A stretch of 63,649 nucleotides of DNA, filler included, from Reclinomonas americana ATCC 50394 (Eukaryota): NCBI GenBank assembly GCA_048213135.1. It is 7 parts of 4 records of this genome, joined end to end, with 100 filler letters (N's around TTAATTAATTAA, not from the genome) between each part and the next. Parts side by side here need not be neighbours in the genome. Positions count along the whole stretch, not along the records: positions 35,862 to 45,322 come from PS015087.1; positions 45,423 to 53,858 come from PS015087.1; 5 more parts are not named here. One strand, 5' to 3'. Positions 8,687 through 61,636 of this stretch are shown here, piece after piece; the first letter of the stretch is position 1, and every line of letters begins with the position of its first letter. Below the pieces are notes generated by a model. It saw only the letters and a program-made list of their open reading frames with translations. It was not told the origin of the DNA and did not search any database. Both the position numbers and the translations under genes were made by a program.

Positions 8687-8844
8687 GGATGTGCGATGGG
8701 GTGAGGGTGGGAGAGAGGGAGGTGGGGGAGAAGAGAGAGCGAGAATGCGAGTGTGCGTGTGCGTGCGCGTGATGAACGAAGGATGGTGACTGAGTGACAA
8801 ATGTCCTCGCATGACTTCATTCCACTTCGCATGCATCTCGCTTC

Positions 8845-9930: not shown

Positions 9931-10061
9931 GGATGTGCGATGGGGTGAGGGTGGGGAGAGGGAGGTGGAATGCGAGAGTGTGCGTGCGTGCGCGAGATGA
10001 ATGAAGGACGGTGATTGAGTGACGGATGTCCTCGCATGACTTCATTCCACTTCGCATGCTC

Positions 10062-28764: not shown

Positions 28765-29038
28765 GTTTGACGAGGGATCAGTTGTCTCCTTCTTCCTCTT
28801 CCTATTCTTCGTGTTCTTGTTCTTCTTGTTCTTCTTCTCCATCTTTTGCTTCTTGTTCTTGTTGTTGTTGTTGTTGTTCTTCCTTCTTCTTATTCTTCCT
28901 CCTCCTCTCTCTTCTTCTCCTCCTCCTCCTCCCTCTTCTTGTTCTTGTTCTTCTCCCCTTCTCCTCCTCCTCCTCCTCCTCCTCCTCCTCCTCTNNNNNN
29001 NNNNNNNNNNNNNNNNNNNNNNNNNNNNNNNNNNNNNN

Positions 29039-29050
29039 TTAATTAATTAA
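29039..29050. other. Artificial six-frame-stop contig linker TTAATTAATTAA (also at 35806, 45367, 53903, 58661, 61581)
   Basis: An identical 12-mer flanked by fixed-length N runs occurs at six places. Confidence 0.95.
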
Positions 29051-29189
29051 NNNNNNNNNNNNNNNNNNNNNNNNNNNNNNNNNNNNNNNNNNNNAGGAAA
29101 TAGTACTTCCACAATGAGTACACCAAGAAACAGTGCATGCGAGAAGCATTTCACCATCCCGTCATGATGAACATCTTAACACAGCGCCT

Positions 29190-35436: not shown

Positions 35437-35861
35437 TTGTTTTTTCTGCCGCAAGGAGGGTGAATGAGGATGACAACAGAGAGAAGGGCAGAGAATGGAC
35501 ACGGAACTCTGACTGGTAGAAAGATGGGTGGTCTTGGCTCTGTTGCTGATGTGCAAAATGGGAATGGTGTATCAAGTTCATGCAGACGGCGACACGCCAT
35601 CACGCCCCGCGTCGATTCTTCCATCCGGACAAATGAGATGTGGCTGCAGTTTTAAACGCGTACGCAGAAACATCAAATTCTACGATTCTCCTGACTGGTG
35701 TGGTGGTGCTCTTGCGCACGCGTCCATGACAGATTCCTTTGAGCATGCTGCGCGAGGAAAANNNNNNNNNNNNNNNNNNNNNNNNNNNNNNNNNNNNNNN
35801 NNNNNTTAATTAATTAANNNNNNNNNNNNNNNNNNNNNNNNNNNNNNNNNNNNNNNNNNNN

Positions 35862-40521: not shown

Positions 40522-42498
40522 GCCCCACCACCACCCCCACCACCCCCACCGGCTGCCCCCGCTCCACCACCTGTCCCGGAGAAGCCTGTGGACCCGCGCG
40601 TGGCGCAAGATTTCCGCGTGCAGCTCGGCGTGCTGATGAATCTCATTCACGGACCGCTGCTGGCGAAGCGCGATCGCTTGCGCGTGCAGCTGCAGAGGTT
40701 GGAGGAGCGAGTGGATGTCGTGCATCGGCAGCGTGCATTGTGAGTCTCGTGTGAGGAGGGAGGGGAGCGGGAAAGGGGAGGGTGGAGGGTAAGGGAGAGA
40801 GGAGTGGAAGGCAGGGAAGAGGGAAGGAGGAAGGGGAGGTGGAGGGAAGGGAGGGACGGAAGAATGGGAGTGTGTTTCTGCGTCCTGTTTCACGGTCTTG
40901 CCAGGCTTGCGTCGCACAATTTCGAGTATTCAGCTGTCATGATAGATAGTCCGTGCTCGATTATGTCTGCGTCATGCTTGGTGTTCATCGTGATCGTCTG
41001 AGTCATGTCGCAGAAGCGTTGGATGTTGTTGTTTCTTCCGTGTTGCGCGGGAGTGGCACAACGTCTGATGCGATCGCCTGTTCAGTGATTTCTGTTGGTG
41101 TATTCATTCAGATGTGCGTCGAACTGTACTCCTCTCTGTCGTGTTTTGATGGCATTGTCTGTAGTCTTGCAGAGGGTGTTTCTACGTGTGTATCAACTTT
41201 GTTCAGCCTCTGACCTATGAGCAATGTCTGTAGTCTGCAGAAGTGTTGCTACATGTGTATCAACTTTGTTTTGCCTCTGATCTATGAGCAATGACTGTTG
41301 TCCTGCAGAGAGTTTCAGCTGCATGTGTATCTACTTTGTTCAGCCTCTGATCTATGAGCAATGTCTGTAGTCTGCAGAAGTGTTGCTACATGTGTATCAA
41401 CTTTGTTTAGCCTCTGCTCTACGAATTCTGAGTGATCTATGAGCAATGTCTGTAGTCTTGCAGAGAGTGTGAGCTGCATGCGTATCAACTTTGTTCAGCC
41501 TCTGCTCTATGAATTCTGAGTGTTACCTTGGGAGAGTTTTTCGCGTTCTTGGGAGAGTGTGTACGGGGGAATGATCTTGCTGCTTTTGGTCCTTCGGCTC
41601 AAGTCTTTGGAGGTTCAATCAACGCAGAACCCTCTGCATATGATAACGTTTTTCAGAATGAGCACAGAGTTTACGAGGCTGACTGGGGGTCGGAGGATGC
41701 AATCTGTCCCTCACTTTTCATTATCTCCTTCCGCTTCTCCGCCTCGTCTCATCCCTTGTTGCCTCCCCACAGAATTGAAGACGAAACACGCGCTGACTGC
41801 GACGGAATCATCGAGAGACTTCGCTGGCGTGAGCAGGAGAAGCGATCAGCGCTGGAGCGCGACATGCATCTGCTACATGTTTCGTCTCCACTCTGTCGCG
41901 TTCTGGTGCATGCTCGCTCTTATATCCAAGTACGCAGCGCGACCTCGATGAAATTCAACACTTTGCCGACTCCCTGTCATCCACATGGAACTCTCCTTCG
42001 CCCGCCATGGAAATGTTCCTTGCCAAGTATCATGTTGCGTCTCTCCTACAACCAAGGGCCGTTTCAACAGGCGTGGCTGGGCGTCCAGCACATTGATTTC
42101 ACTTACGCTTCGCTGCTCCTTCTCCTCCTCCTTCTTCTCCTTCTCCCTTCCCCCTATTGCAGGACTACGTGGCCGAATGTCGACGCCTCTGCGACAAACC
42201 CTTCCAGGAAGCCATCACCGTGGTGGCCGACGACCTGCCCCGCGAGGTGGCGCTGCGCAAGGCCCTCATGGAGTCATACTCGAGTCTGGTGGAGACGCTG
42301 GCGGTGAAGAATCAAATGGTGCGCTACCTGCTGGAGCAGCGCGAGGCGCAGACCACGCAGCAGTGGCAAACGACGGAGGAGATGAAGCGCGTGTTTGGCT
42401 CGGCGCAGCAGGAGATTCAGGAGTGGATTAGGTTAAATGAGAAGTTGTTGGCGGCCGGGGATGACAGTGGTAGCTATGATGAGTATGCGCGAATGTAG
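40522..42498 (+). CDS. 3' exons of an uncharacterised coiled-coil protein
   Basis: Spliceable exons APPPPP...LLAKRDRLRVQLQRLEER...|IEDETRADCDGIIERLR...|DYVAECRRLCDKPFQEAITVVADDLPREVALR...DEYARM*, with GC-rich coding bias and GT-AG borders. Confidence 0.65.
41156..41522. repeat. Minisatellite, ~67-70 bp unit, 5 copies with alternating A/B variants
   Basis: TGATCTATGAGCAATGTCTGTAGTC(T)TGCAG...GTGTATCAACTTTGTTCAGCCTC is repeated. Confidence 0.9.
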
Positions 42499-42668
42499 CA
42501 GCTAGAAGGTGGAAGGCTAATGTACTTTATTTCAACTTCTTTTATCTTTTCGCTCGACAAGAAGAGTGATGTGAGCACCAGAGTGCGCTGCTGCGCACGG
42601 TCGTCAGCTGCTGCTGCTGCTGCTGCATATAAGGCTGTTAAGAGGTGCTGCTCTCCAGCATTGCTCGT

Positions 42669-45013
42669 TCACTCAACGAGAAACACTTCGTAGTCGGCCA
42701 CTTGGAATGTCCGCGTTCCCATCAGTGTCTTGTTGTCCAATGCTCCGCCGTCGGTGCTCTGGTACGAGTTAGGGTTGCTGTGGCTCTCGCTGTTGCTGTT
42801 GCAATCGTCGTACAAGAGAAGGCTGTGTCCATGGCCAAAGATAGGTCCATATCCAGAGTTGTGAACAACGGCATTCTGTTTCTGATCTTCCTTGACTGCA
42901 AAGCGTCGTGCACTTGCACCACTCCACGATGCCGAAAACAAGAGGCTGGTGCCGGATGAATCGACGGCGTAAACGCCTGACGCAGGAGACTGCCACGACA
43001 CAGGTGTGTATCCGCCACACACTCGCCCCGTCGACGACTTGACCACTGTCAGCGTCGCTCTGCACACCAATCAGTCACCGACCACAACAAGCTCTATCTC
43101 CTCCCTTCAATCACTCACCCGCGATTGTCACATTTCTGATGGAATGATTCTGCCGCGAACCCATCTCGACTGCCCTTGAACAGCAACGTCAACTTGGGCA
43201 CCTTCCCGCCGCCTCGCGCTTGCTGAACCCACTGCAGCACCACTCGTCCATCCGCCGCACTCAGCAGATCGCTGTCGATGACCTTTCTCTCCAGCCGCTC
43301 TCGCTCCTCTCGTTTCCTGGCCTCGCGCTCCCGTTCCTCTCGCTCCCGTTCCTCTCGCTCTCTGGCTTGCCGCTCGCGCTCCTCCTGCTCTCTGGCCTGC
43401 CGCTCCCGCTCAGCCGCCTCTCGTTCCTGGATCGCACGTTCACGCGCCTCCAGCGGTTTGAGACGATCAAGCAGCTGCAGTCGACAACGCGACATTATTA
43501 GGACCGATGATCTTAAATAACCCGTACAAAGAGACCGCAGACCTCAGCAACACCTCGCTCGAGAGCTTCGCGCATGCGTCGCTCTGATCCAAGTTGCTCA
43601 CTTGCAGCCTGTTGCTCGCGAGTCAATCGCTCCTCAACAGTTAGTCTCGCATGTCGCTCATCAGCCAGTTGTTGGCGGCACTCGACAAGCATTCCCACAC
43701 AATCGACCAGTCGCTCATCGGCAGCTTGTCTTGCCTCTCTCTCCTGAGCCACCATCTGCGACAGCTCTCGCACTTGGCCACGAAGCTGTACACACAAACA
43801 CATGTCACAATAGCTGCATAAATCCACCGTCCATCATTCCAACTCACCTCTCGCAGCGGTTGCTCCACTCGCAACACATCACATACTCGCTCATGCTCCT
43901 CCCTCTCCCCACCAATTCCACGCCATCCGCACCCCAGTTCACCACCACGACACACTGTATGCTGCAGTCGACACTCCGTCTCTGCAACAACGAGAACAGC
44001 ACATCAGTCATGATACACACCTCTCTCCTCTCAAAGCACACTCACCAAGATGTCGCTGCATATCCGCCAGTGAGCACAGCTGCTGACACCCACGGGGACA
44101 CGCTCGCATGCACCCACTCCAGCTGTGCTCCACCATCTCGCTCAGTGCCAGTCGCATTCCACACCCGAGTGGACACTCGCGCAAGCATCCACTCCACTCA
44201 TGCTCCGCGGTGCGATCCAGTGTCATTTGCTGTCCACATCTCTCGCACGCATACGGACACTGCGACAGAGCATGTGTGCGGTAATAGTCGCCCACCGTCT
44301 GTTCATCCAGAGTGAGAGGACGAAGAGAAGGAAGATGAGAGAATGAGAGGCGGCGAAGAGAACGAGAAGACGCCATGAATGAGAGGAGGGCAAGGGAGGG
44401 AATGCAAAGAAAATGAGAGAACGACACTGAGATTGAGAGGGAAGGGAGAGAGAAAGACACCACAGAAGGGGAGAGGGATGGGCGACAACGTATACGGGAG
44501 AGGTAGAGAGGAGGCGAGGGAGTAGAAGTTGAAGAGGGAGGGAGAGGAACAGAGAAGAGAACGGAGAAGGAGGGGTGGAGAAAGGGAGGCAAACTGAAGC
44601 GAGGAAAGCACACGCAGGAAGGTACTGAGGGCATGGGAGAGAGTAACAGACGGAGTGTGCAAGATGGAGGGAGAAGGATAAAGAAACGCACAAACCATGG
44701 GGGCGTGGCACAGTGGGCATGTGACCTGTTGTGCCTCTCACAAGTCAACATCACTGGCGACTTGCATGCCGAGCGACAAAAGAACGCAACCTTCACATTG
44801 CCAAAGGATATGTGGTTCCGTCGTGAGGCCTCCTTCAACGTGGCCAGCGATGTGACTCCATCACCACACAGATCCACTCCAGCCTCCGTCACATGCTCAC
44901 TATGCCACACTTGTCAGGAAGCCAGCATGAAGCGGAGTGCTTTGCTTTCTCGCTCACCGACACAGGTGATGCAGCTCGCTGGCACACAGCACGAAATCCG
45001 GAGCACACAGGTC
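42669..45013 (-). CDS. TRAF-like protein RING-zinc fingers-coiled coil-TLDc, copy 1 (first exon missing at contig end)
   Basis: DLCAPDFVLCASELHHLCR|EHV..., VTCPLCHAPM, CPYACERC..H..CLRECPLGC..H..CPRGC..HL, coiled coil/ER-rich helix, then TLDc LTLLFKGSRDGF..FHQKCDNRG|ATLTVVKS..GGYT..W..GPIFG..YEVF*. Confidence 0.88.
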
Positions 45014-45239
45014 CTGCGCGATGCAGAGATCAGTGTCTCTCAATCAGGAAAGCAATGAGAGAGACAGAGACAAAGAGAGAGCATGACGTCGTGTATGTTG
45101 TTGCTGTTGTTGTTGTGCAAGCCATCATCATCTCACGGCACTGTCAGTGTCATCAATGCACACAACAGAGAGAGAGAGAGAGAGAGAGAGACAAGGACAC
45201 AGACCGCACATGTGTATGCACACGCACACACTGGGACAG

Positions 45240-45322
<83 letters not shown>

Positions 45323-45745
45323 NNNNNNNNNNNNNNNNNNNNNNNNNNNNNNNNNNNNNNNNNNNNTTAATTAATTAANNNNNNNNNNNNNNNNNNNNNN
45401 NNNNNNNNNNNNNNNNNNNNNNGAGAGAGAGAGAGAGAGAGAAAGACAAGGTGCACAGAAAATGAGAGACTGACACTGAGAATGAAAGGGACAAGAGAGA
45501 GAAAAACACCACAGAAGAGGAAAGGGATGGGCGACAACGTACGCGGGAGAGGCAGAGAGGAGGCGAGGGAGTAGAAGTTGAAGAGGGAGGGAGAGGAACA
45601 GAGAAGAGAACGGAGAAGGAGGGGTGGAGAAATAGGAGGCAAACTGAAGCGAGGAAAGCACACGCAGGAAGGCACTGAGGGCAAGGGAGAGAGAAACAGA
45701 CGGAGTGTGCAAGATGGAGAGAAAAGCACACCGAAACGTACAAAC

Positions 45746-46220
45746 CATGGGGGCGTGGCACAGTGGGCATGTGACCTGTGGTGCCTCTCACAAGTCAACG
45801 GCACTGGCGACTTGTTGACGAGCAATCCAAGAACGCAACCTTCACGTTGCCATACGATATGTGGTTCCGTCGCGAGGCCTCCTTCAGTGTGGCCAGCGAT
45901 GTAACTCCATCACCACACAGATCCACTCCAGCCTCTGTCACATGCTCACTGCGCGTCACACTGGTCAGGAAGCCAGCTAGGAAACACTACTCTCCTCCTT
46001 ATCACCCACCGACACAGGTGATGCAACTCGCTGGCACACAACACGAAATCCGGAGCACACAGATCCTGTGCAATGCATAGATCAGTGTCTCACAGCAGCA
46101 GGAATAGCAATGAGAGAGACAGAGAGAGAGAGAGAGAGAGTCGTATGGTGTTCCTGTTGTTGTTATTGTGTAAATCATCATCATCTCACGGCACTGTCTC
46201 TCATTGTCATCAATGCACAC

Positions 46221-46262
<42 letters not shown>

Positions 46263-46749
46263 GAGACACGACGACCGCACNNNNNNNNNNNNNNNNNNNN
46301 NNNNNNNNNNNNNNNNNNNNNNNNNNNNNNNNNNNNNNNNNNNNNNNNNNNNNNNNNNNNNNNNNNNNNNNNNNNNNNNNNNNNNNNNNNNNNNNNNNNN
46401 NNNNNNNNNNNNNNNNNNNNNNNNNNNNNNNNNNNNNNNNNNNNNNNNNNNNNNNNNNNNNNNNNNNNNNNNNNNNNNNNNNNNNNNNNNNNNNNNNNNN
46501 NNNNNNNNNNNNNNNNNNNNNNNNNNNNNNNNNNNNNNNNNNNNNNNNNACATCCTCCTCTCCCTCCTCTGAAGGAGGACGACGATGCACAGCGCGCACC
46601 ACACGAAACACGTATTGTTCCTCATCACTGAGTCGCATCACTTGCTGCTCGAGAACAATCTGTTCATCCGAGGCAGGAGGGGGAAGAGGAGGAGCAGAGG
46701 CCGAGCCCCTGCCTTCTCCACCACCCTCACGCACGTCCTCGAACCCCAT
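45746..46749 (-). CDS. TRAF-like RING-ZnF-TLDc family, 5' half of an additional copy (cut by contig end)
   Basis: MGFEDVREGG... start, RING exons and intron sequence are homologous but not identical to the other copies. Confidence 0.75.
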
Positions 46750-46911
46750 TCAACCCTGCGCTCTTCTCGCCTTGTGATGAATGACTGTCAAACGCCTGGC
46801 GTGTCCCGCATCATGATGGCCCATCAAGAGTCGTGAGAGCTGCAGAGCCTGCAGTTGCGTGCCAGAGAAGTTGCTGTACCTGCAGGAAGATCACTCTCCA
46901 TCATCGCGCAT

Positions 46912-49490
46912 TCATTCAACGAGAAAGACTTCGTAGTCTGCCACTTGGAACTGGTAAGATCCCATCAGTGTCGTGGTGTCCAATGCTCCGCCGTCGGTGC
47001 TCTGGTACGAGGCAGGGTTGCTGTAGCTGCTGCTGTTGCTGTTGCAGTTGTCGTACAAGATAAGGGTGTTGCCATGTCCGAAGATTGGTCCACATCCAGA
47101 ATTGTGAAGAACGGCATAATGTTTGTACTCAGCCCTCAGAGCAAAGCGTCGTGCGTTTGCGCCACTCCACGACGCGGAGAACAAGAAGCTGGTGCCCGAT
47201 GAATCGGCGCCCCAAGCACCTGACGTAGAAGTCTGCCATGAGACAGGCGTGTATCCACCACACACTCGTCCCGTCGACGACTTGACCACTGTCAGCGTCG
47301 CGCTGCACACAGCCGCTCACCAATCAATCACCGTGTGCAGCAAGCTTTCCATTCCTCAACCACTCACCCACGATTATCGCATCGCTGATGGAATATGGCT
47401 GCCGCGAACCCATCTCGACTGCCCTTGAACAGCAGCGTCAACTTGGGCACACTCCCACCACCACGTGCTTGCTGCACCCACTGAAGCACCACTCGTCCAT
47501 CCGCCGCACTCAGCAGATCGCTGTTGATCTTTCCATCCGCCCGCTCCCGCTCCTCTCGTTCCCTGGCCTCGCGCTCCCGCTCCTCTCGCTCCCTGGCTTG
47601 CCGCTCTCGCTCCTCCTGCTCTCTAGCCAGCCGCTCACGTTCAGCCGCTTCTCGTTCCTCAATTGATCTGACATGCACCTCCAGCGGTTTGAGACGATCA
47701 AGCAGCTGCAGAAAAACAGGAGACGGATGAGGGATGAGCGGTGTACAAGCTACATCCATCACAACAAACCTCAGCAACTCCTCGCTCGAGAGCTTCGCGC
47801 ATGCGTCTCTCGGATCCAAGTTGCTCGGTGCACACGACGAGCCGCTCCGTGCACACAGCAAGGCGCTCATCCGTCGCTTGCCTCGCCCGTTGCTCATCAA
47901 CCAGCAGCTGCTCAATAGCTTGCCTGGCCTCTCTCTCCTGCACCAGCTGCTCCCTGCTCTCTGCCACCATCTGAGACAGTTCTCGCACTCGGCCATGAAG
48001 CTGTACACACAAACACATGTCACAATAGCTGCATGAATCCATAGTCCATTACTCCAAACTCACCTCTCGCAGCGGTTGCTCCACTCGCAACACGTCGCAC
48101 ACTCGCTCATGCTCCTCCCTCTCCCCACCAATACCCCGCCACCCGCACCCCAGTTCACCACCACGACACACTGTGTGCTGCAGTCGACACTCCGTCTCTG
48201 CAACAACGAGAACAGCACATCAGTGTCATGACGCACCTCTCTCCGTCAAGCACACTCACCAAGATGCCGCTGCATGTCCGCCAGTGAACATCGCTGCTGA
48301 CATCCACGCGGGCACGCTCGCGTGCACCCACTCCAGCTGTGCTCCACCATCTCACTCAGCGCCATCCTCGCTCCACATCCGAGTGGACACTCGCGCAAGC
48401 ATCCACTCCACTCATGCTCCGCCGTGCGATCCAGTGTCATCTGCTGTCCACACCGCTCGCATGCATACGGGCACTGCGTGAGGCCATGTGTGCGGTAATA
48501 GTCGCCCACCGTCTGTTCATCCAGAGTGAGATTAAAGGCTGAGAGTAAGAGGGTGCGAAGAGAACGAGGGAAGACACCTGGAATGAGAGGGAGAGCAAGC
48601 GAGGCAGGGGGAAAGAGTGACAGGATGCAAAGAAAATGAGAGAATGACACTGAGAACGAGAGAGAGAGAGAGAGAGAGAGAAAGACACGACAGAAGGGGA
48701 AAGGGATGGGCGACAACGTACGCGGGAGAGGCAGAGAGGAGGCGAGGGAGTAGAAGTTGAAGAGGGAGGGGGAGGAACAGAGAAGAGAACAGAGAAGGAG
48801 GGGTGGAGAACAAGGGAAGCAAACTGAAGCGAGGAAAGCACACGCAGGAAGGTACTGAGGGCAATGGGAGAGAGTAACAGACGGAGTGTGCAAGATGGAG
48901 AGAGGAACAATAAAGAAACACACAAACCATGGGGGCGTGGCACAGTGGGCATGTGACCTGTTGCGCCTCTCACAAGTCAACGTCACTGGCGACTTGTATG
49001 ACGAGCAACCAAGAACGCAACCTTTATGTTGCCATACGATATCTGGTTCCTTCGCGGAGCCTCTTTCAGCGTGGCCAGCGACGTGACTCCATCGCCACAA
49101 AGATCCACTCCAGCCTCTGTCACGTGCTCACTGCGCGTCGCAGTTGTCAGGAAGCCAGCATGAAGCGGGGTGCTCTACTTTCTCGCTCACCGACACAAGT
49201 GATGCAGCTCGCTGGCACACAGCACGAAATCCGGGGCACACAGATCCTGCGCGATGCAGAGACCAGTGTCTCTCAATAGCAGGAAAAGGAGAGAGAGAGA
49301 GAGAGCGACGTCGTGTACGGTGTTGCTGTTGTTGTTGTGCAAGTCATCATCATCTCACGGCACTGTCAGTGTCAGCAATGCACACAAACAACAGAGAGAG
49401 AGAGAGAGAGGAGCATCGAATGCGGGCTCGTCGTGCATTGTCATCTTCTTTTTTTTCTTCTTCTTCTTCTTCTTCTTCTCTTCTTCTTCT

Positions 49491-49529
<39 letters not shown>

Positions 49530-49830
49530 TCATACACACACTCACCAAGCACACTGGGCACATATACTCGTCCGCCAATACTCGCGACTCTTGCGCCACT
49601 TGCTCCATCCACAAACGCGGTGGCTTCACATCCTCCTCCTCTCCCACTTCCGATGGACGTCGTCGATGCACAGCGCGCACCACACGAAACACGTATTGTT
49701 CCTCATCACTGAGTCGCATCACTTGCTGCTCGAGAACTGTCTGTTCATCAGAGGCAGGAGGAGGGGGAGCAGCAGCAGAGGCCGAGCCACTGCCTTCTCC
49801 CGCGCCCTCACGCACGGCCTCGAAACCCAT
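46912..49830 (-). CDS. TRAF-like RING-ZnF-coiled coil-TLDc protein, copy 2 (complete)
   Basis: MGFEAVRE...EYMCPVCL|DLCAPDFVLCASELHHLCR|EHVTEAGVDLCGDG (RING-like), TRAF-type zinc fingers, coiled coil, and TLDc ending FQVADYEVFLVE*. Confidence 0.9.
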
Positions 49831-49978
49831 TCACCCCTGCTCACTTCTCGCCTTGTGACAAATGAGTGTCTTTTGTGTCCTGCATCATGATGGCAACGTG
49901 AGAGCTGCAGAGCTGCTGCTGATGCGTGCCAGAGAAGTTGCTGTACCTGCAGGAAGATCACCCTCCAACATCGCGCAT

Positions 49979-52900
49979 TCACTCAACGAGGAAGACTTCG
50001 TAATCTGCCACTTGGAAGTACTGCGTTCCCATCAGTGTCGTGGTGTCCAATGCTCCGCCGTCGGTGCTCTGGTACGAGGTAGGGTTGCTGTAGTTGCTGC
50101 TGTTGCTGTTGCAGTTGTCGTACAAGACAAGGCTGCTACCTCCGAAGATTGGTCCACATCCAGAGACGTGATAAACGGAATGTTGTTTCTTGTCGTCCTT
50201 CAGCGCAAAGCGTCGCGCACTTGCACCGCTCCACGAGGCCGAAAATAACAAGCTGGTGCCGGATGGATCGGCAGCATAAACGGCTGACGCAGGAGACTGC
50301 CACGAGACAGGCGTGTATCCGCCACACACTCGTCCCGTCGACGACTTGACCACAGTCAGCGTCGGTCTGCGTGCAGTCACTCATCAATCAATCACCGACC
50401 ACAACAACCACTCCCTTCCCTCAATCACTAACCCACGATTGTCACACCGCCCGTGGAATGTGGCTGCCACAAACCCATCTCGACTGCCCTTGAACAGCAG
50501 CGTCAGCTTGGACACCTTCCCGCCTCCTCGCGCTTGCTGCACCCACTGCAGCACCACTCGTCCATCCGCCGCACTCAGTAGATCGCTGTCAATCTTCATC
50601 TCAGCCCGCTCCCGCTCCTCTCGTTCCCTCTCCAGCCGTTCTCGCTCCTCCCGCTCTCTCGCCTGCCGCTCGCGCTCCTCCTGCTCTCTGGCCAGCCGCT
50701 CGAGTTCCGCTGCCTCTCGCTCCTGAATCGCTCGGTCACGCACCTCCAGCGGTTTGAGACGATCAAGCAGCTGCAGACGAATACGACACGATTAGGACCG
50801 ATGATCTTACATGACCCATAGGTAATCATACCGCAGACCTCAGCAACACCTCTCTCGAGTGCCTCACGCATGCGCCGCTCCGATCCAAGTTGCTCAGTGC
50901 ACACAGCGAGCCGCTCCGTGCATACAGCAAGGCGCTCATCCATCGCTTGCCTCGCCCGTTGCTCACCAGTGAGCTGCTGGCGACACTCGACAAGCATCCC
51001 CACACAATCGACCAGTCGCTCATCGGCAGCTTGTCTTGCCTCTCTCTCCTGAGCCACCAGCTGAGATAATTCGCGCAATTGACTGTTAAGCTGGGGAATC
51101 TCTCGCACTCGACCATGCAGCTACGCACACAACCATTAACCATATCAGCTGACATGAATGGTATCTCCATCGTATCCTTCCAACTCACCTCACGCAGCGG
51201 TCGCTCCACTCGCAACACATCGCACACTCGCTCATGCTCCTCCCTCTCTCCAATAATACCCCGCCATCCACACCCCAGTTCACCACCACGACACACTGTG
51301 TGCTGCAGTCGGCACTCCGTTTCTGCAACAAGAGATCATTTCAGTGTCATGATACACACCTCCCTCCATCAAGCACACTCACCAAGATGCCGCTGCATCT
51401 CCGCCAATGAACACTGCTGCTGACACCCACGCGGACACGCTCGCATGCACCCACTCCAGCTGTGCTCCACCATCTCACTCAGCGCCATCCTTGCACCACA
51501 CCCCAGCGGGCATTCGCGCAAGCATCCACTCCACTCATGCTCCGCCGTCCGGTCCAGTGTCATCTGCTCTCCACACCGCTCGCAGGCATACGGACACTGC
51601 GTCAGAGCATGTGTGCGGTAATAGTCGCCCACCGTCTGTTCGTCCAAGCAGAGTGAGAGGACAATAAGAAGGAAGATGAGAGACTGAGAGGCGGCGATGA
51701 GAACGAGAGAAGACACCATACATGAAAGGAGGGCAAGAGAGGCAGCGAAAGATAGAAGGAGAGAATGTCATCGTGCAATGAAAATGAGAGAATGACGCTG
51801 ACAATGAGAGGGAAAAGAGAGAGAAAGACACCACAGAAGAGGAAAGGGATGGGCGACAACGTACGCGGGAGAGGTAGAGAGGAGGCGAGGGAGTAGAAGT
51901 TGAAGAGGGAGGGAGAGGAAAAGAGAAGAGAACAGAGAAGGAGGGGTGGAGAAATGGGAGGCAAACTGAGGGAAGGTACTGAGGGCAAGGGAGAGAGAAA
52001 CCGACGGAGTGTGCAAGATGGAGGGAGAAGGATAAAGAAACACACAAACCATGGGTGCGTGGCACAGTGGGCATGTGACCTGTGGTGCCTCTCACAAGTC
52101 AACATCACTGGCAGCTTGCATCAACAGACAACCACACGCAACCTTCACGTTGCCATAAGATATGTGGTTCCGTCGTGAGGCCTCCTTCAACGTGGCCAGC
52201 GATGTGACTCCATCACCACACAGATCCACTCCAGCCTCCGTCACATGCTCACTGCGCGTCACACTGGTCAGGAAGCCAGCATGAAAGCACTCTCCTCTTG
52301 CTCACTCACCGACACAGGTGATGCAGCTCGCTGGAACACAGCACGAAATCCGGGGCACACAGATCCTGCGCAATGCAGAGATCAGTGTCTCTCAATAGCG
52401 GGAATGGCAATAAGGGGTCNNNNNNNNNNNNNNNNNNNNNNNNNNNNNNNNNNNNNNNNNNNNNNNNNNNNNNNNNNNNNNNNNNNNNNNNNNNNNNNNN
52501 NNNNNNNNNNNNNNNNNNNNNNNNNNNNNNNNNNNNNNNNNNNNNNNNNNNNNNNNNNNNNNNNNNNNNNNNNNNNNNNNNNNNNNNNNNNNNNNNNNNN
52601 NNNNNNNNNNNNNNNNNNNNNNNNNNNNNNNNNNNNNNNNNNNNNNNNNNNNNNNNNNNNNNNNNNNNNNNNNNNNNNNNNNNNNNNNNNNNNNNNNNNN
52701 NNNNNNNNNNNNNNNNNNNNNNNNNNNNNNNNNNNNNNNNNNNNNNNNNNNNNNNNNNNNNNNNNNNNNNNNNNNNNNNNNNNNNNNNNNNNNNNNNNNN
52801 NNNNNNNNNNNNNNNNNNNNNNNNNNNNNNNNNNNNNNNNNNNNNNNNNNNNNNNNNNNNNNNNNNNNNNNNNNNNNNNNNNNNNNNNNNNNNNNNNNNN

Positions 52901-53076
52901 NNNNNNNNNNNNNNNNNNNNNNNNNNNNNNNNNNNNNNNNNNNNNNNNNNNNNNNNNNNNNNNNNNNNNNNNNNNNNNNNNNNNNNNNNNNNNNNNNNNN
53001 NNNNNNNNNNNNNNNNNNNNNNNNNNNNNNNNNNNNNNNNNNNNNNNNNNNNTCTTCTTCTTCTTCTTCTTCTTCT

Positions 53077-53110
<34 letters not shown>

Positions 53111-53429
53111 CCTTCACACACGCACTCACCAAACACACTGGGCACAGATACTCGTCCGCCAATACTCGCGACTCTTGCGCGACTTGCTCCATCCACACAC
53201 GCGGTGGCTTCACATCCTCCTCCCTCTCTCCTACTTCCGACGGAGGACGACGATGCACAGCGCGCACCACACGAAACACGTATTGTTCCTCGCTGTCGCC
53301 AGTGAGTGCATTCCTCACTCGCATCACTTGCTGCTCGAGAACAATCTGTTCATCAGAGGCAGGAGGAGGAGGAGCAGCAGCAGAGGCCGAGCCACTGCCT
53401 GCGCCCTCGAGCATGTCCTTGAAACCCAT
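49979..53429 (-). CDS. TRAF-like RING-ZnF-coiled coil-TLDc protein, copy 3
   Basis: Same exon structure from MGFKDMLE to the TLDc end QYFQVADYEVFLVE*. Confidence 0.9.
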
Positions 53430-53959
53430 TCACCCCAGCTCGTCGCCTTGTGATGAATGGAATTGAACGTGTCCTGCAATCGTCGGGCAAGCCAAGTTGC
53501 CTTTCCTTGTCGGCCTGGTGGCTTCCTCTTCTCGTAGAGCAAGCCACCTCGTCGGTACTCCACTGTGGGGGTCGAGAGCTGCAGAGTTGCATGGACAAGT
53601 TGTCAGAGAGGTCGCAGTGCTGTTGCTGCGCATGCTCTAGATCTCCAGAATCGCACTTCGAAGGTGCCATCCTTGTAGTGATGCCACACGACTCTCCTTT
53701 CATGCAGAGCACGCTCGGCACTCTCCAACTCTTTCCTCTCCCTCGCTCACCTCCTTGCGATCACTTCTGATACCAACACCTGCTATGTTTCTCGTTTCCT
53801 TTGTGGAATTCGGCGTCAAATCCATGCTTGTCACGAGCCGTGGTTTCTCTTGCAGAAANNNNNNNNNNNNNNNNNNNNNNNNNNNNNNNNNNNNNNNNNN
53901 NNTTAATTAATTAANNNNNNNNNNNNNNNNNNNNNNNNNNNNNNNNNNNNNNNNNNNNC

Positions 53960-54465
53960 CGGCGACCTCATCTCCTACATCAATCCCAATTTCACGCTGC
54001 CCAAGGATACCAGTCGCAAGTTGCCGGCCTTCAGCACCACCTCCCCGATGGCACACCAGCTGGCACGACCGGTGCCCGAGTTGACCACGGATCCCCACTA
54101 CGCCACGTGGAACCGAGGACTCGCACAGCCACCGGTTTGCATGCTTTGCTGTTTCTCCTTCGTCACTCTCCTCCTCTCTACCTTCTTCTCTGTTCCTTCC
54201 TCTCACTCTCTCCCCCCTTTCCTCGCAGAAACGTGACTTGCACGCACTCATGCGTGGTGTGGCCACGCTGCACCCCTTCAGCAACACCAATATCAGCGTC
54301 ACCTCCACTCTCAGTTCCACTCACTCACCACGCGCCGCCATGAGTCGCATCGCTGGCGGCCATCTCAGCCCACGCGGAGGCGCGTTTGGGCGAGCTGGCC
54401 CCATGCTGTCGCCGGTCTCATCGTCGGGCGGCCGTTCTCCCGGGCGATTCGCCGGTGGAGTGTAA
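53960..54465 (+). CDS. 3' exons of an unidentified protein
   Basis: GDLISYINPNFTLPKDTS...GLAQPP, then an intron (GTTTGC...CGCAG), then ...DLHALMRGVATLHPF...GRFAGGV*. Confidence 0.4.
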
Positions 54466-54624
54466 CACTAGAAAGAGGCGAAGAGAAAGAGAGAGAATGA
54501 GAGAGATGCTCTTGTCAGTTTTCCAGTTTGTTGTTCACCAACTTATGGGGTGCAAAAACACGAAGTTGGAGAGTTGTCCTCGTCCGCACACTCAATCGTC
54601 ATTCGTTCGTCATCGTCCGCGCGC

Positions 54625-55719
54625 ATGTCAACCACCGCACCCTTCTGCCACTCTCGCACCCTCCAGGGACACACGCACATGGTGCTCTCTGTCGCCATCA
54701 CTCCCGATGGCGAGCTCATCGTGAGTGGGAGCGCAGACAAGACTGTGCGAGTGTGGTCGGAAGAAAGAGCAGTGCACACAATGGAGGGACACAGCGGGTG
54801 GGTGTGGTCTGTCGCCACCACTCCCGACAGTCAGCATGCGGTGAGCGGAAGTCGTGACAAGACTGTGCGCGTGTGGTCACTGGCCAGTGGAGAGGAGGTG
54901 CGACGATTGGATGGGCATGATGCAGCAGTGCTGACTGTTGCTGTCACTCCTGATGGGCAGCACGTTGTAAGTGGCGGTGAGGACAACACCGTGCGGGTGT
55001 GGTCACTGGCAAGTGCAGAGCAGGTGCGACAGTTGGAGGGGCACACCGACGGGGTGTGGTCTGTTGCTGTCACACCTGACGGCGAGCACATCGTCAGCGG
55101 AAGTACTGACCGGACCGTGCGAGTGTGGTCACTGGCGAGTGGAGAGGAGGTGAGGCGGTTTGGAGGACCCAGAGACCGGATCACCGCCATTGCCGTCACT
55201 CCCGACAGCCAGCAAGTGGTGTGTGCAGCGCATGACAAGACGCTGCGACTCGTGTCGCTGGCAACTGGCGAAGTAGTGTGGCGCTTGAAGGGTCACGGTG
55301 CTGGAGTGCGAGTTCTCGTCATCACGCCCGATAGCCAACACATTCTCAGCGCCGATGGAGGGAGCCCGGTGCGCGTGTGGTCGCGGGAGAGCGGGGAACT
55401 CGTGCGGCAGATTGACGGGCAGTCATCTCTGACGTCGTGTGTCGCCGTGGCTGCGCACGGAGAGTGCGTTGTAGTCGGCGATATACACAACACGCTTCGC
55501 GTCTGGTCGACACCGAGTGGCCTGGCGCTTGCCGAAGCGCGCGTCGCCCGCCTTGCCATGCACGCCGTTCAAGAGCTGCAGCGCGAGGTGGAAGACGAGG
55601 AGTGGTGTCGGCGCTGTTTGGCAGAGATCGTGCTGCGGTGCTTCCTCGTCGAGGAGGCTGACGTGGTGCTGCATCGCTGCCTCGCCGATCCGTTGATGTG
55701 CTGGCGGAGGCCTAGGTGA
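54625..55719 (+). CDS. Intronless WD40 protein with conserved C-terminal tail (array 2, copy D)
   Basis: Seven WD repeats. Tail STPSGLALAEARVARLAMHAVQELQREVEDEEWCRRCLAEIVLRCFLVEEADVVLHRCLADP is homologous to the array 1 tails. Confidence 0.93.
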   Translation: MSTTAPFCHSRTLQGHTHMVLSVAITPDGELIVSGSADKTVRVWSEERAVHTMEGHSGWVWSVATTPDSQHAVSGSRDKTVRVWSLASGEEVRRLDGHDAAVLTVAVTPDGQHVVSGGEDNTVRVWSLASAEQVRQLEGHTDGVWSVAVTPDGEHIVSGSTDRTVRVWSLASGEEVRRFGGPRDRITAIAVTPDSQQVVCAAHDKTLRLVSLATGEVVWRLKGHGAGVRVLVITPDSQHILSADGGSPVRVWSRESGELVRQIDGQSSLTSCVAVAAHGECVVVGDIHNTLRVWSTPSGLALAEARVARLAMHAVQELQREVEDEEWCRRCLAEIVLRCFLVEEADVVLHRCLADPLMCWRRPR

Positions 55720-55917
55720 TTGCACCCGCACCAGTTTGGTGATCAGCTGCAAGGGTGAGGAATGAACGCCTGTAATGTTCACCAACGCAGCTCAGTGTTT
55801 CCGAGTTGGTTTCGTGTATAGCCTGCCGTTCTGCCGAGGGAGTCTGCTCGCAGAGTGTAATGCCAGGAAGTTAGAGAGTTGTCCCCGTCCGCTCTTCCTT
55901 CAATCATCTCGAGTCGC

Positions 55918-57003
55918 ATGTTGAGCGCACCCTTCTGCCACTCTCGCACTCTCCATGGACACACTCGCATGGTGCTCTCTGTCGCCATCACTCCCAATGG
56001 CGAGCTCATCGTGAGTGGGAGCGCAGACAGGACTGTGCGAGTGTGGATGAACGAAAGAGCAGTGCACACAATGGAGGGACACAGCGGGTGGGTGTGGTCT
56101 GTCGCCACCACTCCCGACAGTCAGCATGCAGTGAGCGGAAGTCGTGACAAGACTGTGCGCGTGTGGTCACTGGCGAGTGGAGAGGAGGTGCGACGATGGG
56201 AGGGGCATGATGCAGCAGTGCTGACTGTTGCTGTCACTCCCGATGGGCAGAGCGTTGTGAGTGGCGGTGAGGACAACACCGTGCGAGTGTGGTCACTGGC
56301 AAGTGCAGAGCAGGTGCGACAGTTGGAGGGGCACACCGACTGGGTGTGGTCTGTCGCTGTCACTCCTGACGGCGAGCACATCATCAGCGGAAGTACGGAC
56401 CGGACCGTGCGAGTGTGGTCACTGGCAAGTGGAGAGGAGGTGAGGCGGTTTGGAGGACCCAGAGACCGGATCACCGCCATTGCCGTCACGCCCGACAGCC
56501 AGCACGTGGTGTGTGCAGCGCATGACAAGACGCTGCGACTCGTGTCGCTGGCAACTGGCGAAGTTGTGTGGCGCTTGAAGGGTCACGGTGTTGGAGTGCA
56601 TGTTCTCGTCATCACGCCCGATAGCCAACACATTCTCAGCGCCGATGGAAGGAGCCCGGTGCGCGTGTGGTCGCGGGAGAGCGGGGAACTCGTGTTGCAA
56701 ATTGACGGGCATTCATCTCTGACGTCATGTGTTGCCGTGGCTGCGCACGGAGAGTGCGTTGTAGTCGGCGATATGCAGAACACGATTCGCGTCTGGTCGA
56801 CACCGAGCGGCCTGGCGCTTGCCGAAGCGCGCGTCGCACGCCTTGCCATGCACGCCGTTCAAGAGCTGCAGCGCGAGGTGGAAGACGAGGAGTGGTGTCG
56901 GCGCTGTTTGGCGGAGATTGTGCTGCGGTGTTTCCTTGTCGAGGAGGCCGACGTTGTGCTGCATCGGTGCCTCGCCAATCCGTTGATGTGCTGGCGGCGG
57001 TGA
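55918..57003 (+). CDS. Intronless WD40 protein (array 2, copy E)
   Basis: Near-identical paralogue in a ~1290-bp tandem unit. Confidence 0.93.
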   Translation: MLSAPFCHSRTLHGHTRMVLSVAITPNGELIVSGSADRTVRVWMNERAVHTMEGHSGWVWSVATTPDSQHAVSGSRDKTVRVWSLASGEEVRRWEGHDAAVLTVAVTPDGQSVVSGGEDNTVRVWSLASAEQVRQLEGHTDWVWSVAVTPDGEHIISGSTDRTVRVWSLASGEEVRRFGGPRDRITAIAVTPDSQHVVCAAHDKTLRLVSLATGEVVWRLKGHGVGVHVLVITPDSQHILSADGRSPVRVWSRESGELVLQIDGHSSLTSCVAVAAHGECVVVGDMQNTIRVWSTPSGLALAEARVARLAMHAVQELQREVEDEEWCRRCLAEIVLRCFLVEEADVVLHRCLANPLMCWRR

Positions 57004-57207
57004 TTGCACCCGCACCAGTTTGGTGATTTGCTGCAAGGGTGAGGAATGAACGCCTGTAATGTTCACCAACGCAGCTCAGTGTTTCCGAGTTGGTTTCGTG
57101 TATAGCCTGCCGTTCTGCCGAGGGAGTCTGCTCGCAGAGTGTAATGCCAGGAAGTTAGAGAGTTGTCCCCGTCCGCTCTTCCTTCAATTATCTCAATATC
57201 AAGTCGC

Positions 57208-58293
57208 ATGTTGAGCGCACCCTTCTGCCACTCTCGCACCCTTCAGGGACACACGCTTATGGTGCTCTCTGTCGCCATCACTCCCGACAGCGAGCTCATC
57301 GTGAGTGGGAGCGCTGACCAGACTGTGCGAGTGTGGATGAACGAAAGAGCAGTGCACACAATGGAGGGACACAGCGGGTGGGTGTGGTCTGTCGCCACCA
57401 CTCCCGACAGTCAGCATGCAGTGAGCGGAAGTCGTGACAAGACTGTGCGCGTGTGGTCACTGGCGAGTGGAGAGGAGGTGCGACGATTGGATGGGCATGA
57501 TGCAGCGGTGCTGACTGTTGCTGTCACTCCCGATGGGCAGCACATTGTGAGTGGCGGTGAGGACAACATCGTGCGAGTGTGGTCGCTGGCGAGTGGAGAA
57601 CAGGTGCGACAGTTGGAGGGACACACCGACTGCGTGTGGTCTGTCGCTGTCACTGCCGACGGAGAGCACGTGGTGAGTGGGAGTGGCGACAAGACCGTGC
57701 GCGTGTGGTCACTGGCGAGTGGAGAGGAGGTGAGGCGGTTTGGAGGGTTCAGAGACTGGATCTCCGCCATTGCCATCACGCCCGACAGCCAGCACGTGGT
57801 GTGCATAGGGCATGACAAGACGCTGCGACTCGTGTCACTGGCAACTGGCGAGGATGTGTGGCGCTTGAAGGGCCACGGTGCTGGAGTACGAGTTCTCGTT
57901 GTCACGCGCGACGGGCAGCACATTCTCGGCGCCGATGGAAGGAGCCCGGTGCGCGTGTGGTCGCGGGAGAGCGGGGAACTCGTGCGGGAGATTGACGGGC
58001 ATTCATCTCTGACGTCATGTGTTGCCGTGGCTGCGCATGGAGAGTGCGTTGTAGTCGGCGATATGCAGAACACGATTCGCGTCTGGTCGACACCGAGCGG
58101 CCTGGCGCTTGCCGAAGCGCGCGTCGCCCGCCTTGCCATGCACGCCGTTCAAGAGCTGCAGCACGAGGTGGAAGACGAGGGGTGGAGTCGGCGCTGTTTG
58201 GCAGAGATCGTGCTGCGGTGTTTCCTTGTCGAGGAGGCTGACGTGGTGCTGCATCGCTGCCTCGCCAATCCGTTGATGTGCTGGCGGCGGTGA
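57208..58293 (+). CDS. Intronless WD40 protein (array 2, copy F)
   Basis: Near-identical paralogue in a ~1290-bp tandem unit. Confidence 0.93.
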   Translation: MLSAPFCHSRTLQGHTLMVLSVAITPDSELIVSGSADQTVRVWMNERAVHTMEGHSGWVWSVATTPDSQHAVSGSRDKTVRVWSLASGEEVRRLDGHDAAVLTVAVTPDGQHIVSGGEDNIVRVWSLASGEQVRQLEGHTDCVWSVAVTADGEHVVSGSGDKTVRVWSLASGEEVRRFGGFRDWISAIAITPDSQHVVCIGHDKTLRLVSLATGEDVWRLKGHGAGVRVLVVTRDGQHILGADGRSPVRVWSRESGELVREIDGHSSLTSCVAVAAHGECVVVGDMQNTIRVWSTPSGLALAEARVARLAMHAVQELQHEVEDEGWSRRCLAEIVLRCFLVEEADVVLHRCLANPLMCWRR

Positions 58294-58462: not shown

Positions 58463-60420
58463 ATGTTGAGCGCACCCTTCTGCCACTCTCGCACCCTCAA
58501 CGGGCACACCCACGCGGTAATGTCTCTCGCAGTCACCCGCGACGGCCTCTCAATCGTCAGCACGGGCTGGGACAAGACTGTGCGCGTGTGGTCACTCGTC
58601 AGTGGCGAACAAGTGCNNNNNNNNNNNNNNNNNNNNNNNNNNNNNNNNNNNNNNNNNNNNTTAATTAATTAANNNNNNNNNNNNNNNNNNNNNNNNNNNN
58701 NNNNNNNNNNNNNNNNACCGCATGGAGGGACACACCGGGTGGGTGTGGTCTGTGGCCATCACACCCGACAGTCTCTCGGTGGTCAGTGGCAGTGCGGATG
58801 CCACTATCCGCGTGTGGTCGCTGGTGAGTGGCGAGGAGGTGCGACGACTGGAGGGTCACGATGGTTCAGTGATGTCAGTCGCCATCACCCCCGATGGCCA
58901 GCACGTTGTGAGTGGAAGTCATGATGAATCTGTGCGAATGTGGTCGCTGGTGAGTGGCGAGGAGGTGCACCGCTTGGTGGGGCACACGGGATGGGTGTGG
59001 TCTGTCGCGGTCACAGCCGACGGAGAGCATGTGGTGAGCGGGAGTGGCGACAAGACCGTGCGAGTGTGGTCACTGGCGAGTGGCGAGGTGCGACGACTGG
59101 CGACATTCACCGACTGGGTCACCGCCATGGCCGTCACGCCCGACAGCCAGCACGTGGTGTGCGCAGGGCACGACNNNNNNNNNNNNNNNNNNNNNNNNNN
59201 NNNNNNNNNNNNNNNNNNNNNNNNNNNNNNNNNNNNNNNNNNNNNNNNNNNNNNNNNNNNNNNNNNNNNNNNNNNNNNNNNNNNNNNNNNNNNNNNNNNN
59301 NNNNNNNNNNNNNNNNNNNNNNNNNNNNNNNNNNNNNNNNNNNNNNNNNNNNNNNNNNNNNNNNNNNNNNNNNNNNNNNNNNNNNNNNNNNNNNNNNNNN
59401 NNNNNNNNNNNNNNNNNNNNNNNNNNNNNNNNNNNNNNNNNNNNNNNNNNNNNNNNNNNNNNNNNNNNNNNNNNNNNNNNNNNNNNNNNNNNNNNNNNNN
59501 NNNNNNNNNNNNNNNNNNNNNNNNNNNNNNNNNNNNNNNNNNNNNNNNNNNNNNNNNNNNNNNNNNNNNNNNNNNNNNNNNNNNNNNNNNNNNNNNNNNN
59601 NNNNNNNNNNNNNNNNNNNNNNNNNNNNNNNNNNNNNNNNNNNNNNNNNNNNNNNNNNNNNNNNNNNNNNNNNNNNNNNNNNNNNNNNNNNNNNNNNNNN
59701 NNNNNNNNNNNNNNNNNNNNNNNNNNNNNNNNNNNNNNNNNNNNNNNNNNNNNNNNNNNNNNNNNNNNNNNNNNNNNNNNNNNNNNNNNNNNNNNNNNNN
59801 NNNNNNNNNNNNNNNNNNNNNNNNNNNNNNNNNNNNNNNNNNNNNNNNNNNNNNNNNNNNNNNNNNNNNNNNNNNNNNNNNNNNNNNNNNNNNNNNNNNN
59901 NNNNNNNNNNNNNNNNNNNNNNNNNNNNNNNNNNNNNNNNNNNNNNNNNNNNNNNNNNNNNNNNTTGGCGCTGCGACTCTTCTCACTGACAAGTGGCGCA
60001 GAAGTATGGCGCAAGGAGTGGCAAGCTGGTGGCGTACGGCTGCTCACCGTCACGCACGACGGGCAGCACATCCTCGGCGCCGGCGGAAGCAACGCAGTGC
60101 GCGCATGGTCGCGGGAGAGCGGCGAACCGCTTGCCGATCTTGACGAGCACTCGTCTCTGTCGTCGTCCGTGGCCGCGCACGACGACGGGTGCGTCGTCGC
60201 CTGCGGCTACATGCACGGCACGATTCGCGTGTGGTCGACACCGCGCGGCCTCGCTCGTGCGGAAGCACGCGTCGCTCGCCTCGCCATGCACGCCATTCAA
60301 GACGTGCTGCACGAGATGGAAGACGATTGGAATCGCGCTTGCCTGCCCGAGATCGTTCTGCGCTGCTTCCTCGTCGAGGAGGCCGCTGTGGTGCTGCATC
60401 GGTGCCTCACCGATGCCTAA
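58463..60420 (+). CDS. Intronless WD40 protein (array 2, copy G), split by a linker and an N gap that both close in frame
   Basis: ...SGEQV + HRMEGHTGW (GTG C|AC CGC) and ...CAGHD + LALRLFSL join with no missing residues relative to the paralogues. Tail ends CLPEIVLRCFLVEEAAVVLHRCLTDA*. Confidence 0.82.
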
Positions 60421-61536: not shown

Positions 61537-61636
61537 NNNNNNNNNNNNNNNNNNNNNNNNNNNNNNNNNNNNNNNNNNNNTTAATTAATTAANNNNNNNN
61601 NNNNNNNNNNNNNNNNNNNNNNNNNNNNNNNNNNNN

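Follow-up and report, generated by a model that had tools for sequence, protein, structure and literature searches.

What does a protein built like a TRAF do with a TLDc domain at its C-terminus, and what do the differences between neighboring copies of that domain signify? The question is raised by a tandem gene array of Reclinomonas americana ATCC 50394 (GenBank assembly GCA_048213135.1), which we analyzed within a window of 63,649 nucleotides (nt), the whole stretch of DNA under study. A sequence-only reading of the locus had described TRAF-like E3 ligases in which TLDc replaces the MATH domain, and had proposed that TLDc serves there as a diversifying module that delivers targets, possibly from pathogens or prey, to ubiquitination. 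We find at least four tandemly duplicated genes with TLDc at the position where TRAF1-6 carry MATH and TRAF7 carries WD40. With modest confidence, we favor the view that they form a lineage-specific tandem family of TRAF-like proteins with a TLDc head, whose paralogs differ through relaxed constraint rather than an arms race.

A tandem array of TRAF-like genes

The open frames of 40-56 kb were translated first, and a model of one gene, copy C, was then built from the DNA. Searches (tblastn) with the copy-C exon peptides covered the whole window, to which the count of paralogs refers; all relatives are confined to 42672-53429, every one on the minus strand. The array consists of three TLDc-bearing exon sets (A, B and C) and a fourth unit, A', with exons 1-4 only. 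Its bounds had been placed at 42669 and 53429, and both are exact, the former being the first base of the stop codon of A and the latter the A of the ATG of C. The claim of at least four head-to-tail copies holds for the RING-like exons, found in A, A', B and C; for TLDc only three copies are visible, and these match the three variants that had been quoted. The gene models are as follows.

49979-53429, minus strand: copy C, complete nine-exon gene, 632 amino acids (aa), 1899 nt, open frame
53429-53130, 52365-52310, 52251-52143, 52088-52050, 51635-51383, minus strand: copy C, exons 1-5
51322-51189, 51120-50839, 50770-50433, 50366-49979, minus strand: copy C, exons 6-9
52420-53052: N gap inside intron 1 of copy C
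49831-49978, minus strand: spacer of 148 nt from the stop codon of C to the ATG of B
46912-49830, minus strand: copy B, complete nine-exon gene, 611 aa, open frame in gap-free sequence
49830-49546, 49246-49191, 49130-49022, 48966-48928, 48512-48260, minus strand: copy B, exons 1-5
48197-48064, 48000-47770, 47705-47368, 47302-46912, minus strand: copy B, exons 6-9
46750-46911: spacer of 162 nt from B to A'
45746-46749, minus strand: copy A', 5' part; exon 1 starts at 46749 and is broken by an N gap at 46281-46549
46065-46010, 45948-45840, 45784-45746, minus strand: copy A', exons 2-4; later exons lost at the join 45323-45422
45323-45422, strandless: join (44 N, TTAATTAATTAA, 44 N), with (GA)n on either side
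42669-45013, minus strand: copy A, exons 2-9, 526 aa without exon 1, open frame
45013-44958, 44899-44791, 44734-44696, 44298-44046, minus strand: copy A, exons 2-5
43981-43848, 43785-43543, 43474-43119, 43059-42669, minus strand: copy A, exons 6-9

All eight introns of copy C are of the GT-AG type and, in an alignment of the four genomic units, A, A' and B keep each of these splice sites as far as their sequence extends; the splice sites rest on this GT-AG conservation together with codon-level constraint. Introns are typically 54-68 nt long, intron 4 measuring 414 nt. An additional stretch (ECFHAGFL...) was considered as coding and rejected, being disrupted in A and B and followed downstream by the conserved AG acceptor. 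A search of Rfam over 42000-54000 returned one sub-threshold match, within a microsatellite, and nothing in intron 4. The two intergenic spacers are themselves conserved between repeat units and, at 148 and 162 nt, leave little space for a terminator and a promoter, which raises the possibility that the array is transcribed polycistronically or by read-through.

In the proteins, an N-terminal region precedes a RING-like motif; five TRAF-type CCHC zinc fingers and a coiled coil follow, and TLDc closes the chain at the C-terminus. The proposed TRAF-like order, with TLDc at the MATH position, is thus confirmed. As no exon has a Pfam match to MATH, the proteins should be called TRAF-like, in the sense that TRAF7 is, rather than canonical TRAFs. 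Along the window the domains map as follows.

52143-53144, minus strand: RING-like motif of copy C, from the end of exon 1 through exons 2 and 3 (spliced translation)
51189-52088, minus strand: five TRAF-type CCHC zinc fingers of copy C, exons 4-6 (spliced translation)
50591-51120, minus strand: copy C, coiled-coil or helical region rich in E and R, comprising exon 7 plus 60 codons at the start of exon 8
49982-50590, minus strand: TLDc domain of copy C (PF07534), the last 52 codons of exon 8, intron 8 and exon 9
46915-47525, minus strand: equivalent TLDc domain of copy B
42672-43276, minus strand: equivalent TLDc domain of copy A

Identity and probable fold of the TLDc domain

The assignment to PF07534 is direct. 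Exon 9 alone covers profile positions 54-169 at 42.9 bits, above the cut-off of 24.5 (E=6.5e-11); exon 8, with E=0.11 when scored separately, extends the match at positions 24-51. A first AlphaFold model built on a nine-row alignment reached a pLDDT (predicted local distance difference test) of 46 and was discarded. As a proxy for the fold we took a TLDc-only relative of 172 aa (P0119), which is 42% identical to copy B and could be modeled from a 96-row alignment with a pLDDT of 97.1. Among the PDB entries that Foldseek matched to this model with E<=0.001, 16 of 16 are TLDc structures, including OXR2, NCOA7, Skywalker, mEAK-7, Oxr1 and Rtc5p, with template-modeling (TM) scores of 0.67-0.73 at 15-22% identity. 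Single-sequence searches of solved structures gave nothing meaningful.

A GSRDGF motif is nearly invariant across the TLDc subfamily and invariant in A, B and C. In mEAK-7, Gly276/His277 contact subunit B of the V-ATPase and Pro316/Gln317 contact subunit A (PMC9263379). A profile of the array domains aligned with 89 other subfamily members covers mEAK-7 residues 263-329. Measured against the contacts given there, GSRDGF aligns with Gly276/His277, the glycine of the motif matching Gly276, and one of the patches that vary between the copies (SPASGVYAV / TSTSGAWGA / SPASAVYAA) corresponds to the loop that holds Pro316/Gln317; Tyr341, Thr354, Tyr367 and Lys384, also listed there as contacts, fall outside the aligned stretch. 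According to a second study, five of five mammalian TLDc proteins bind the V-ATPase, and conserved glycines are critical (PMC8608904).

RING-like motif, zinc fingers and coiled coil

In the spliced translation, the putative ligands of the RING-like motif read C-x2-C-x10-C-x4-H-x2-C-x2-H-x8-C-x-D, and all eight are invariant in A, A', B and C. The string on which the motif had originally been recognized, CPVCLDLCAPDFVLCASELHHLCREH..CGD, is present in our alignment, as are all other strings quoted from the locus. CPLC was tried as the last RING pair, at the cost of a 39-residue insert, and rejected: CPLC...H...C has regular TRAF-finger spacing and aligns with zf-TRAF proteins.

The fingers run from this CPLC in exon 4 to exon 6, with spacings of C-x2-C-x12-H-x4-C and C-x2-C-x11-H-x4-C in the first two, C-x3-C-x11-H-x4-C in the third and fourth, and C-x6-C-x11-H-x3-C in the fifth. 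We assign them to zf-TRAF (PF02176) on this CCHC spacing and on their relatives, the direct Pfam score being below the cut-off. A phmmer search with exon 5 against 1.84 billion representatives returned 12 matches, all at most 37% identical, with PF02176 in 10 of the 11 that were scanned (P0005, of 2717 aa, was left out) and no TLDc. Alignment of the finger region to a zf-TRAF-only protein by hhalign gave 93.9%. The leads from the ESM Atlas are at family level only, namely TLDc and zf-TRAF clusters, and a metagenome scan with the zinc-finger alignment yielded two weak loci (41% over 43 aa), neither with TLDc. The coiled-coil region that follows, of about 160 residues, is rich in E, R, Q and L, matches Pfam coiled-coil families only weakly, and differs in length between copies through insertions and deletions.

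Uneven selection along the protein

We estimated omega, the ratio of replacement to synonymous divergence (dN/dS), pairwise by the Nei-Gojobori method and, separately, with maximum-likelihood codon models on the three-taxon star tree of A, B and C. The pairwise values are 0.07-0.19 for RING exons 2-4, 0.06-0.08 for the zinc fingers, 0.18-0.29 for the coiled coil and 0.30-0.34 for TLDc (0.32-0.43 for exon 9 alone); under model M0, omega rises from 0.088 (RING plus zinc fingers) through 0.185 (coiled coil) to 0.38 (TLDc). The RING and zinc fingers are therefore under strong purifying selection at nearly every residue. The zinc-finger exon had been called almost invariant, which is true of the protein (76 of 84 residues) and not of the DNA, where the copies differ by 9-11%, with a dS of 0.34-0.47 in exons 5-6. 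Replacements in TLDc are 3-5 times those in the zinc fingers at equal dS: the replacement counts differ between the two domains (p=4.5e-6 to 2e-3), whereas the synonymous counts do not (p=0.23-1, Fisher). Because the synonymous divergence of the fingers equals that of TLDc, their near-invariance must be due to selection, and not to recent homogenization or gene conversion.

RING plus zinc fingers have 16 variable sites among 197 and TLDc has 44 among 181, and the sites at which all three copies differ number 1 and 10, respectively. That TLDc differs in discrete patches is supported statistically, its variable sites forming 24 runs where 33.6 +/- 2.4 would be expected (P=1e-4, 10000 permutations). 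They fall in the patch introduced above and in VKEDQKQNAVV / LRAEYKHYAVL / LKDDKKQHSVY, GHGHS / GHGNT / G-GSS and GTRT / GSYQ / GTQY. The sequence-only reading had set against itself the case of a TLDc ratio well below 1 with scattered changes; the ratio is indeed low (0.30-0.43), and the changes are clustered along the sequence, not scattered. With three sequences, positive selection in TLDc is not significant (log-likelihood, lnL, of -1249.913 for M1a and -1247.770 for M2a; twice the difference, 2dlnL, 4.29; p=0.12). On the secondary structure of the proxy fold, loops hold no excess of variable sites (19 of 81 positions, as against 13 of 59 in strands and 9 of 18 in helices; p=0.47).

A further division is obtained when TLDc sites are split by their conservation among the 89 other subfamily members, a criterion independent of the array copies. 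The 108 family-conserved codons have an omega of 0.18 (2dlnL against omega=1, 32.5), and the 59 family-variable codons one of 1.05 (pairwise 0.85-1.27; 2dlnL against 1, 0.02), which fits relaxed constraint at permissive positions. The domain thus consists of a constrained core, about two thirds of its sites with an omega of about 0.18, and about one third of sites that drift at about 1, in clustered patches. In its simplest reading, the variation of TLDc from copy to copy looks like relaxed constraint at permissive positions.

The copies as paralogs

The pairwise dS between copies is 0.33-0.47. Comparison of A with A' shows a difference of 3-7% in the exons and 10-31% in the introns that both contain, so they are separate paralogs, and neither alleles nor an unmerged overlap. 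A gap-free block (46550-52419) holds the start of A', the entire B, both spacers and exons 2-9 of C. Allelic or mis-assembled copies, named beforehand as the circumstance that would undo the interpretation, are ruled out by these three observations, and the copies of the array are real paralogs. Their divergence is uneven from one part of the unit to another: in exon 3, A differs from C by 3% and from B by 16%; in intron 7 the same pairs differ by 21% and 52%, and in intron 3 the difference between A' and B is 2%. This mosaic is probably the trace of recombination or gene conversion among the copies. As a separate observation, the CT-rich intron 4 (52049-51636 in copy C, with counterparts in A, A' and B) differs by only 9-16% between copies, less than synonymous positions in the neighboring exon, where dS is 0.34-0.47. 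A conserved element or gene conversion could account for this, as could an effect of low complexity on the alignment.

The window is draft eukaryotic scaffold sequence with 30 N runs. The 3' exons of A' are concealed by the join at 45323-45422, beyond which exon 1 of A lies; further copies may be hidden there as well. Joins of the form 44 N-TTAATTAATTAA-44 N occur six times (45323-45422, 53859-53958, 28995-29094, 35762-35861, 58617-58716 and 61537-61636), the linker providing stop codons in all frames. They are artificial contig links and so do not establish how the joined pieces are ordered or how far apart they lie.

Relatives of the TLDc domain

Exon 9 alone retrieved two longer relatives and one near relative, and a profile search was used to reach further; it found 1396 TLDc relatives with E<=0.001 among 8000 scored candidates. 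Architecture was examined in the best 120 of the 1396. A BTB/BACK-like head is present in 58 of these and two or three TLDc domains in 34, and TLDc lies C-terminally in 112. By blastp, the RING/finger region is shared by none of the 120; among the 28 that were scanned with Pfam, none matches RING or zf-TRAF and three carry a KCTD-type BTB_2. The profile of the BTB/BACK part matches the BTB-BACK of KLHL3, gigaxonin and KLHL11, and one cluster of relatives contains an Ochromonas transcript. To judge by domain order, TLDc in this closest subfamily often sits at what would be the substrate-binding position of a Cul3 adaptor, in parallel to its place on the TRAF-like scaffold here. Literature searches brought up no account of a TLDc protein linked to RING, TRAF or BTB ('TRAF' mostly matched 'traffic'). 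The TRAF-like scaffold with TLDc is an undescribed domain combination, and does not constitute a new class of system.

Other genes in the window

Closely packed tandem gene arrays are unusually frequent on this scaffold. Two further ones consist of single-exon WD40 beta-propeller genes, at 54559-58290 on the plus strand and at 7598-11102 on the minus strand. The three plus-strand copies share about 90% protein identity and are separated by only about 140-150 nt; the three on the minus strand show 52-54% identity with them. At 13530-14951, on the minus strand, an open frame encodes a low-complexity region resembling RSLD/CPSF6 along with a von Willebrand factor A domain (VWA_3, E=2.8e-13).

Discussion

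Several known systems can be compared with the array. TRAF2, TRAF3, TRAF5 and TRAF6 have five zinc fingers, and with these the array proteins share the domain order, the finger number and the Cys...Asp ending of the RING or RING-like motif, differing from them in the lack of MATH and in the TLDc domain at the C-terminus. The RING-like motif, with its C..D ending, resembles the RING of TRAF6, which is of the C3HC3D type. The closest known design is that of the metazoan TRAF7, which has WD40 in place of TRAF-C and a trimeric coiled coil (PMC11216086). TRAF7 combines RING, where the array proteins have the RING-like motif, with TRAF-type zinc fingers, a coiled coil and, like them, a non-MATH C-terminal domain; the array proteins have TLDc rather than WD40, five regular CCHC fingers and atypical RING ligands, and a sequence relationship to TRAF7 is evident only at the level of domain families. 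On the TLDc side, OXR1/Oxr1p, NCOA7, TBC1D24/Skywalker, mEAK-7 (TLDC1), TLDC2 and Rtc5p belong to the same Pfam family, and their fold is shared by the modeled relative of the array. The array TLDc retains the glycine aligned with Gly276 of mEAK-7, whereas its identity to the characterized proteins is only 15-22%. The partner domains listed for characterized TLDc proteins are LysM/GRAM, TBC or EF-hand-like, and never RING or TRAF (PMC9263379). The nearest TLDc domains, about 37-45% identical to that of copy B, belong to uncharacterized protist and metagenome proteins (P0001, P0002, P0016-P0132) with BTB/BACK, BTB_2 (KCTD), coiled-coil or multiple-TLDc architectures; those with BTB/BACK likewise place TLDc at the predicted substrate-binding position of an E3 adaptor, and the group differs from the array proteins in not sharing their RING/zinc-finger region (0 of the best 120).

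In the reading we favor, that of a lineage-specific TRAF-like family under relaxed constraint, the coiled coil would oligomerize the proteins as it does in TRAFs, the RING/zinc-finger module would recruit an E2 and build ubiquitin chains, and the TLDc head would dock the complex on a partner. By analogy with the characterized TLDc proteins, this partner would most likely be the V-ATPase or another conserved cellular complex. The differences between paralogs would then represent drift at structurally permissive positions, perhaps with some fine-tuning.

A number of results weigh against this picture. The V-ATPase-binding TLDc domains are only 15-22% identical to the subfamily of the array and match its profile weakly (E=1.8e-4 to 0.017), so that V-ATPase binding may not transfer. 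Compared with the RING consensus, the motif is non-canonical in two spacings and one ligand, with a C3-to-H4 spacing of 4, His as ligand 6 and C-x-D as the last pair, and the isolated zinc-finger exon scores below the zf-TRAF cut-off (E=0.47). Regarding selection, the M2a fit places 3% of TLDc sites at an omega of about 18, without reaching significance, and in a site class whose omega is near 1 positive and negative selection can mask each other. As three sequences afford little power, such a mixture stays compatible with the data. The last 30 TLDc codons (42672-42760, 46915-47000 and 49982-50070), which adjoin the GTRT / GSYQ / GTQY patch, are also the only sliding window with a pN/pS above 1; the value of 1.82 arises because synonymous divergence there is low (pS 0.08), and the sample is too small to interpret.

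The last two of these observations, the M2a point estimate and the terminal window, are also among the grounds for a constant RING/zinc-finger/coiled-coil effector carrying a diversifying TLDc receptor, by which each paralog would ubiquitinate a different target, for instance from a pathogen or prey (compare TRIM5 and further immune E3 families). The same could be said of the three- to fivefold excess of TLDc replacements over those of the zinc fingers at equal dS, of the clustering of variable sites, with 10 as against 1 differing in all three copies, of the alignment of the first patch with the ligand-contact loop of mEAK-7, and of the tandem expansion with a recombination-like mosaic, which is typical of such families. 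Other results speak against this proposal of the sequence-only reading. TLDc has an overall omega of 0.38 and M2a is no significant improvement over M1a; the subfamily-variable sites, at 1.05, are not above 1; variable sites show no preference for loops; and only four copies are visible. The variable patches moreover coincide with columns that vary across all 89 relatives, which marks them as permissive positions in general. On present data, we regard a diversifying recognition module as less likely than relaxed constraint and, taken by itself, as unlikely.

In a broader variant of this idea, GSRDGF-type TLDc would be a general substrate-receptor head of ubiquitin ligases in microbial eukaryotes, placed on a TRAF-like scaffold in the array and on KLHL-like BTB-BACK or KCTD BTB scaffolds in relatives, as MATH is in TRAF and SPOP, and diversifying in the array, with a different and possibly foreign target for each paralog. 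We consider this proposal quite doubtful.

Rather improbable, in our view, is that the RING-like motif is degenerate and the proteins are non-catalytic scaffolds, oligomeric adaptors or regulators whose TLDc binds a partner such as the V-ATPase while the fingers bind ubiquitin or other proteins. The non-canonical ligand pattern would suit such a role, as would the score of the zinc-finger exon with the ubiquitin-binding zf_UBZ (E=1e-4 and 22.3 bits, under the cut-off of 25.6) and the precedent of TRAF1, which has no RING and, like several other TRAFs, acts mainly as an adaptor. A motif free to decay is, however, hard to reconcile with an omega of 0.07-0.19 in exons 2-4 and with eight putative ligands kept in A, A', B and C, and the C..D ending recalls the TRAF6-type RING. 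Finally, that the copies are alleles, unmerged assembly overlaps or pseudogenes, as a draft scaffold with 30 N runs and an artificial linker within the array might suggest, is extremely improbable given the pairwise dS, the intron differences between A and A', the gap-free block, the open frames throughout, the conserved splice sites and an omega well below 1 in every domain.

The array is a compact natural experiment, in which a constant effector module and a variable head have the same synonymous divergence. The TLDc domains studied so far all bind the V-ATPase and regulate it. TLDc stands here at the business end of a TRAF-like scaffold and, in its nearest relatives, behind BTB/BACK heads that resemble those of Cul3 adaptors. 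If the substrate-receptor reading were true, TLDc would be a recognition module, and more than a regulator of the V-ATPase. An active scaffold could mean that some eukaryotes control the V-ATPase by ubiquitination, with a dedicated TLDc-guided ligase, or, alternatively, that TLDc is a broader protein-recognition module than has been assumed.

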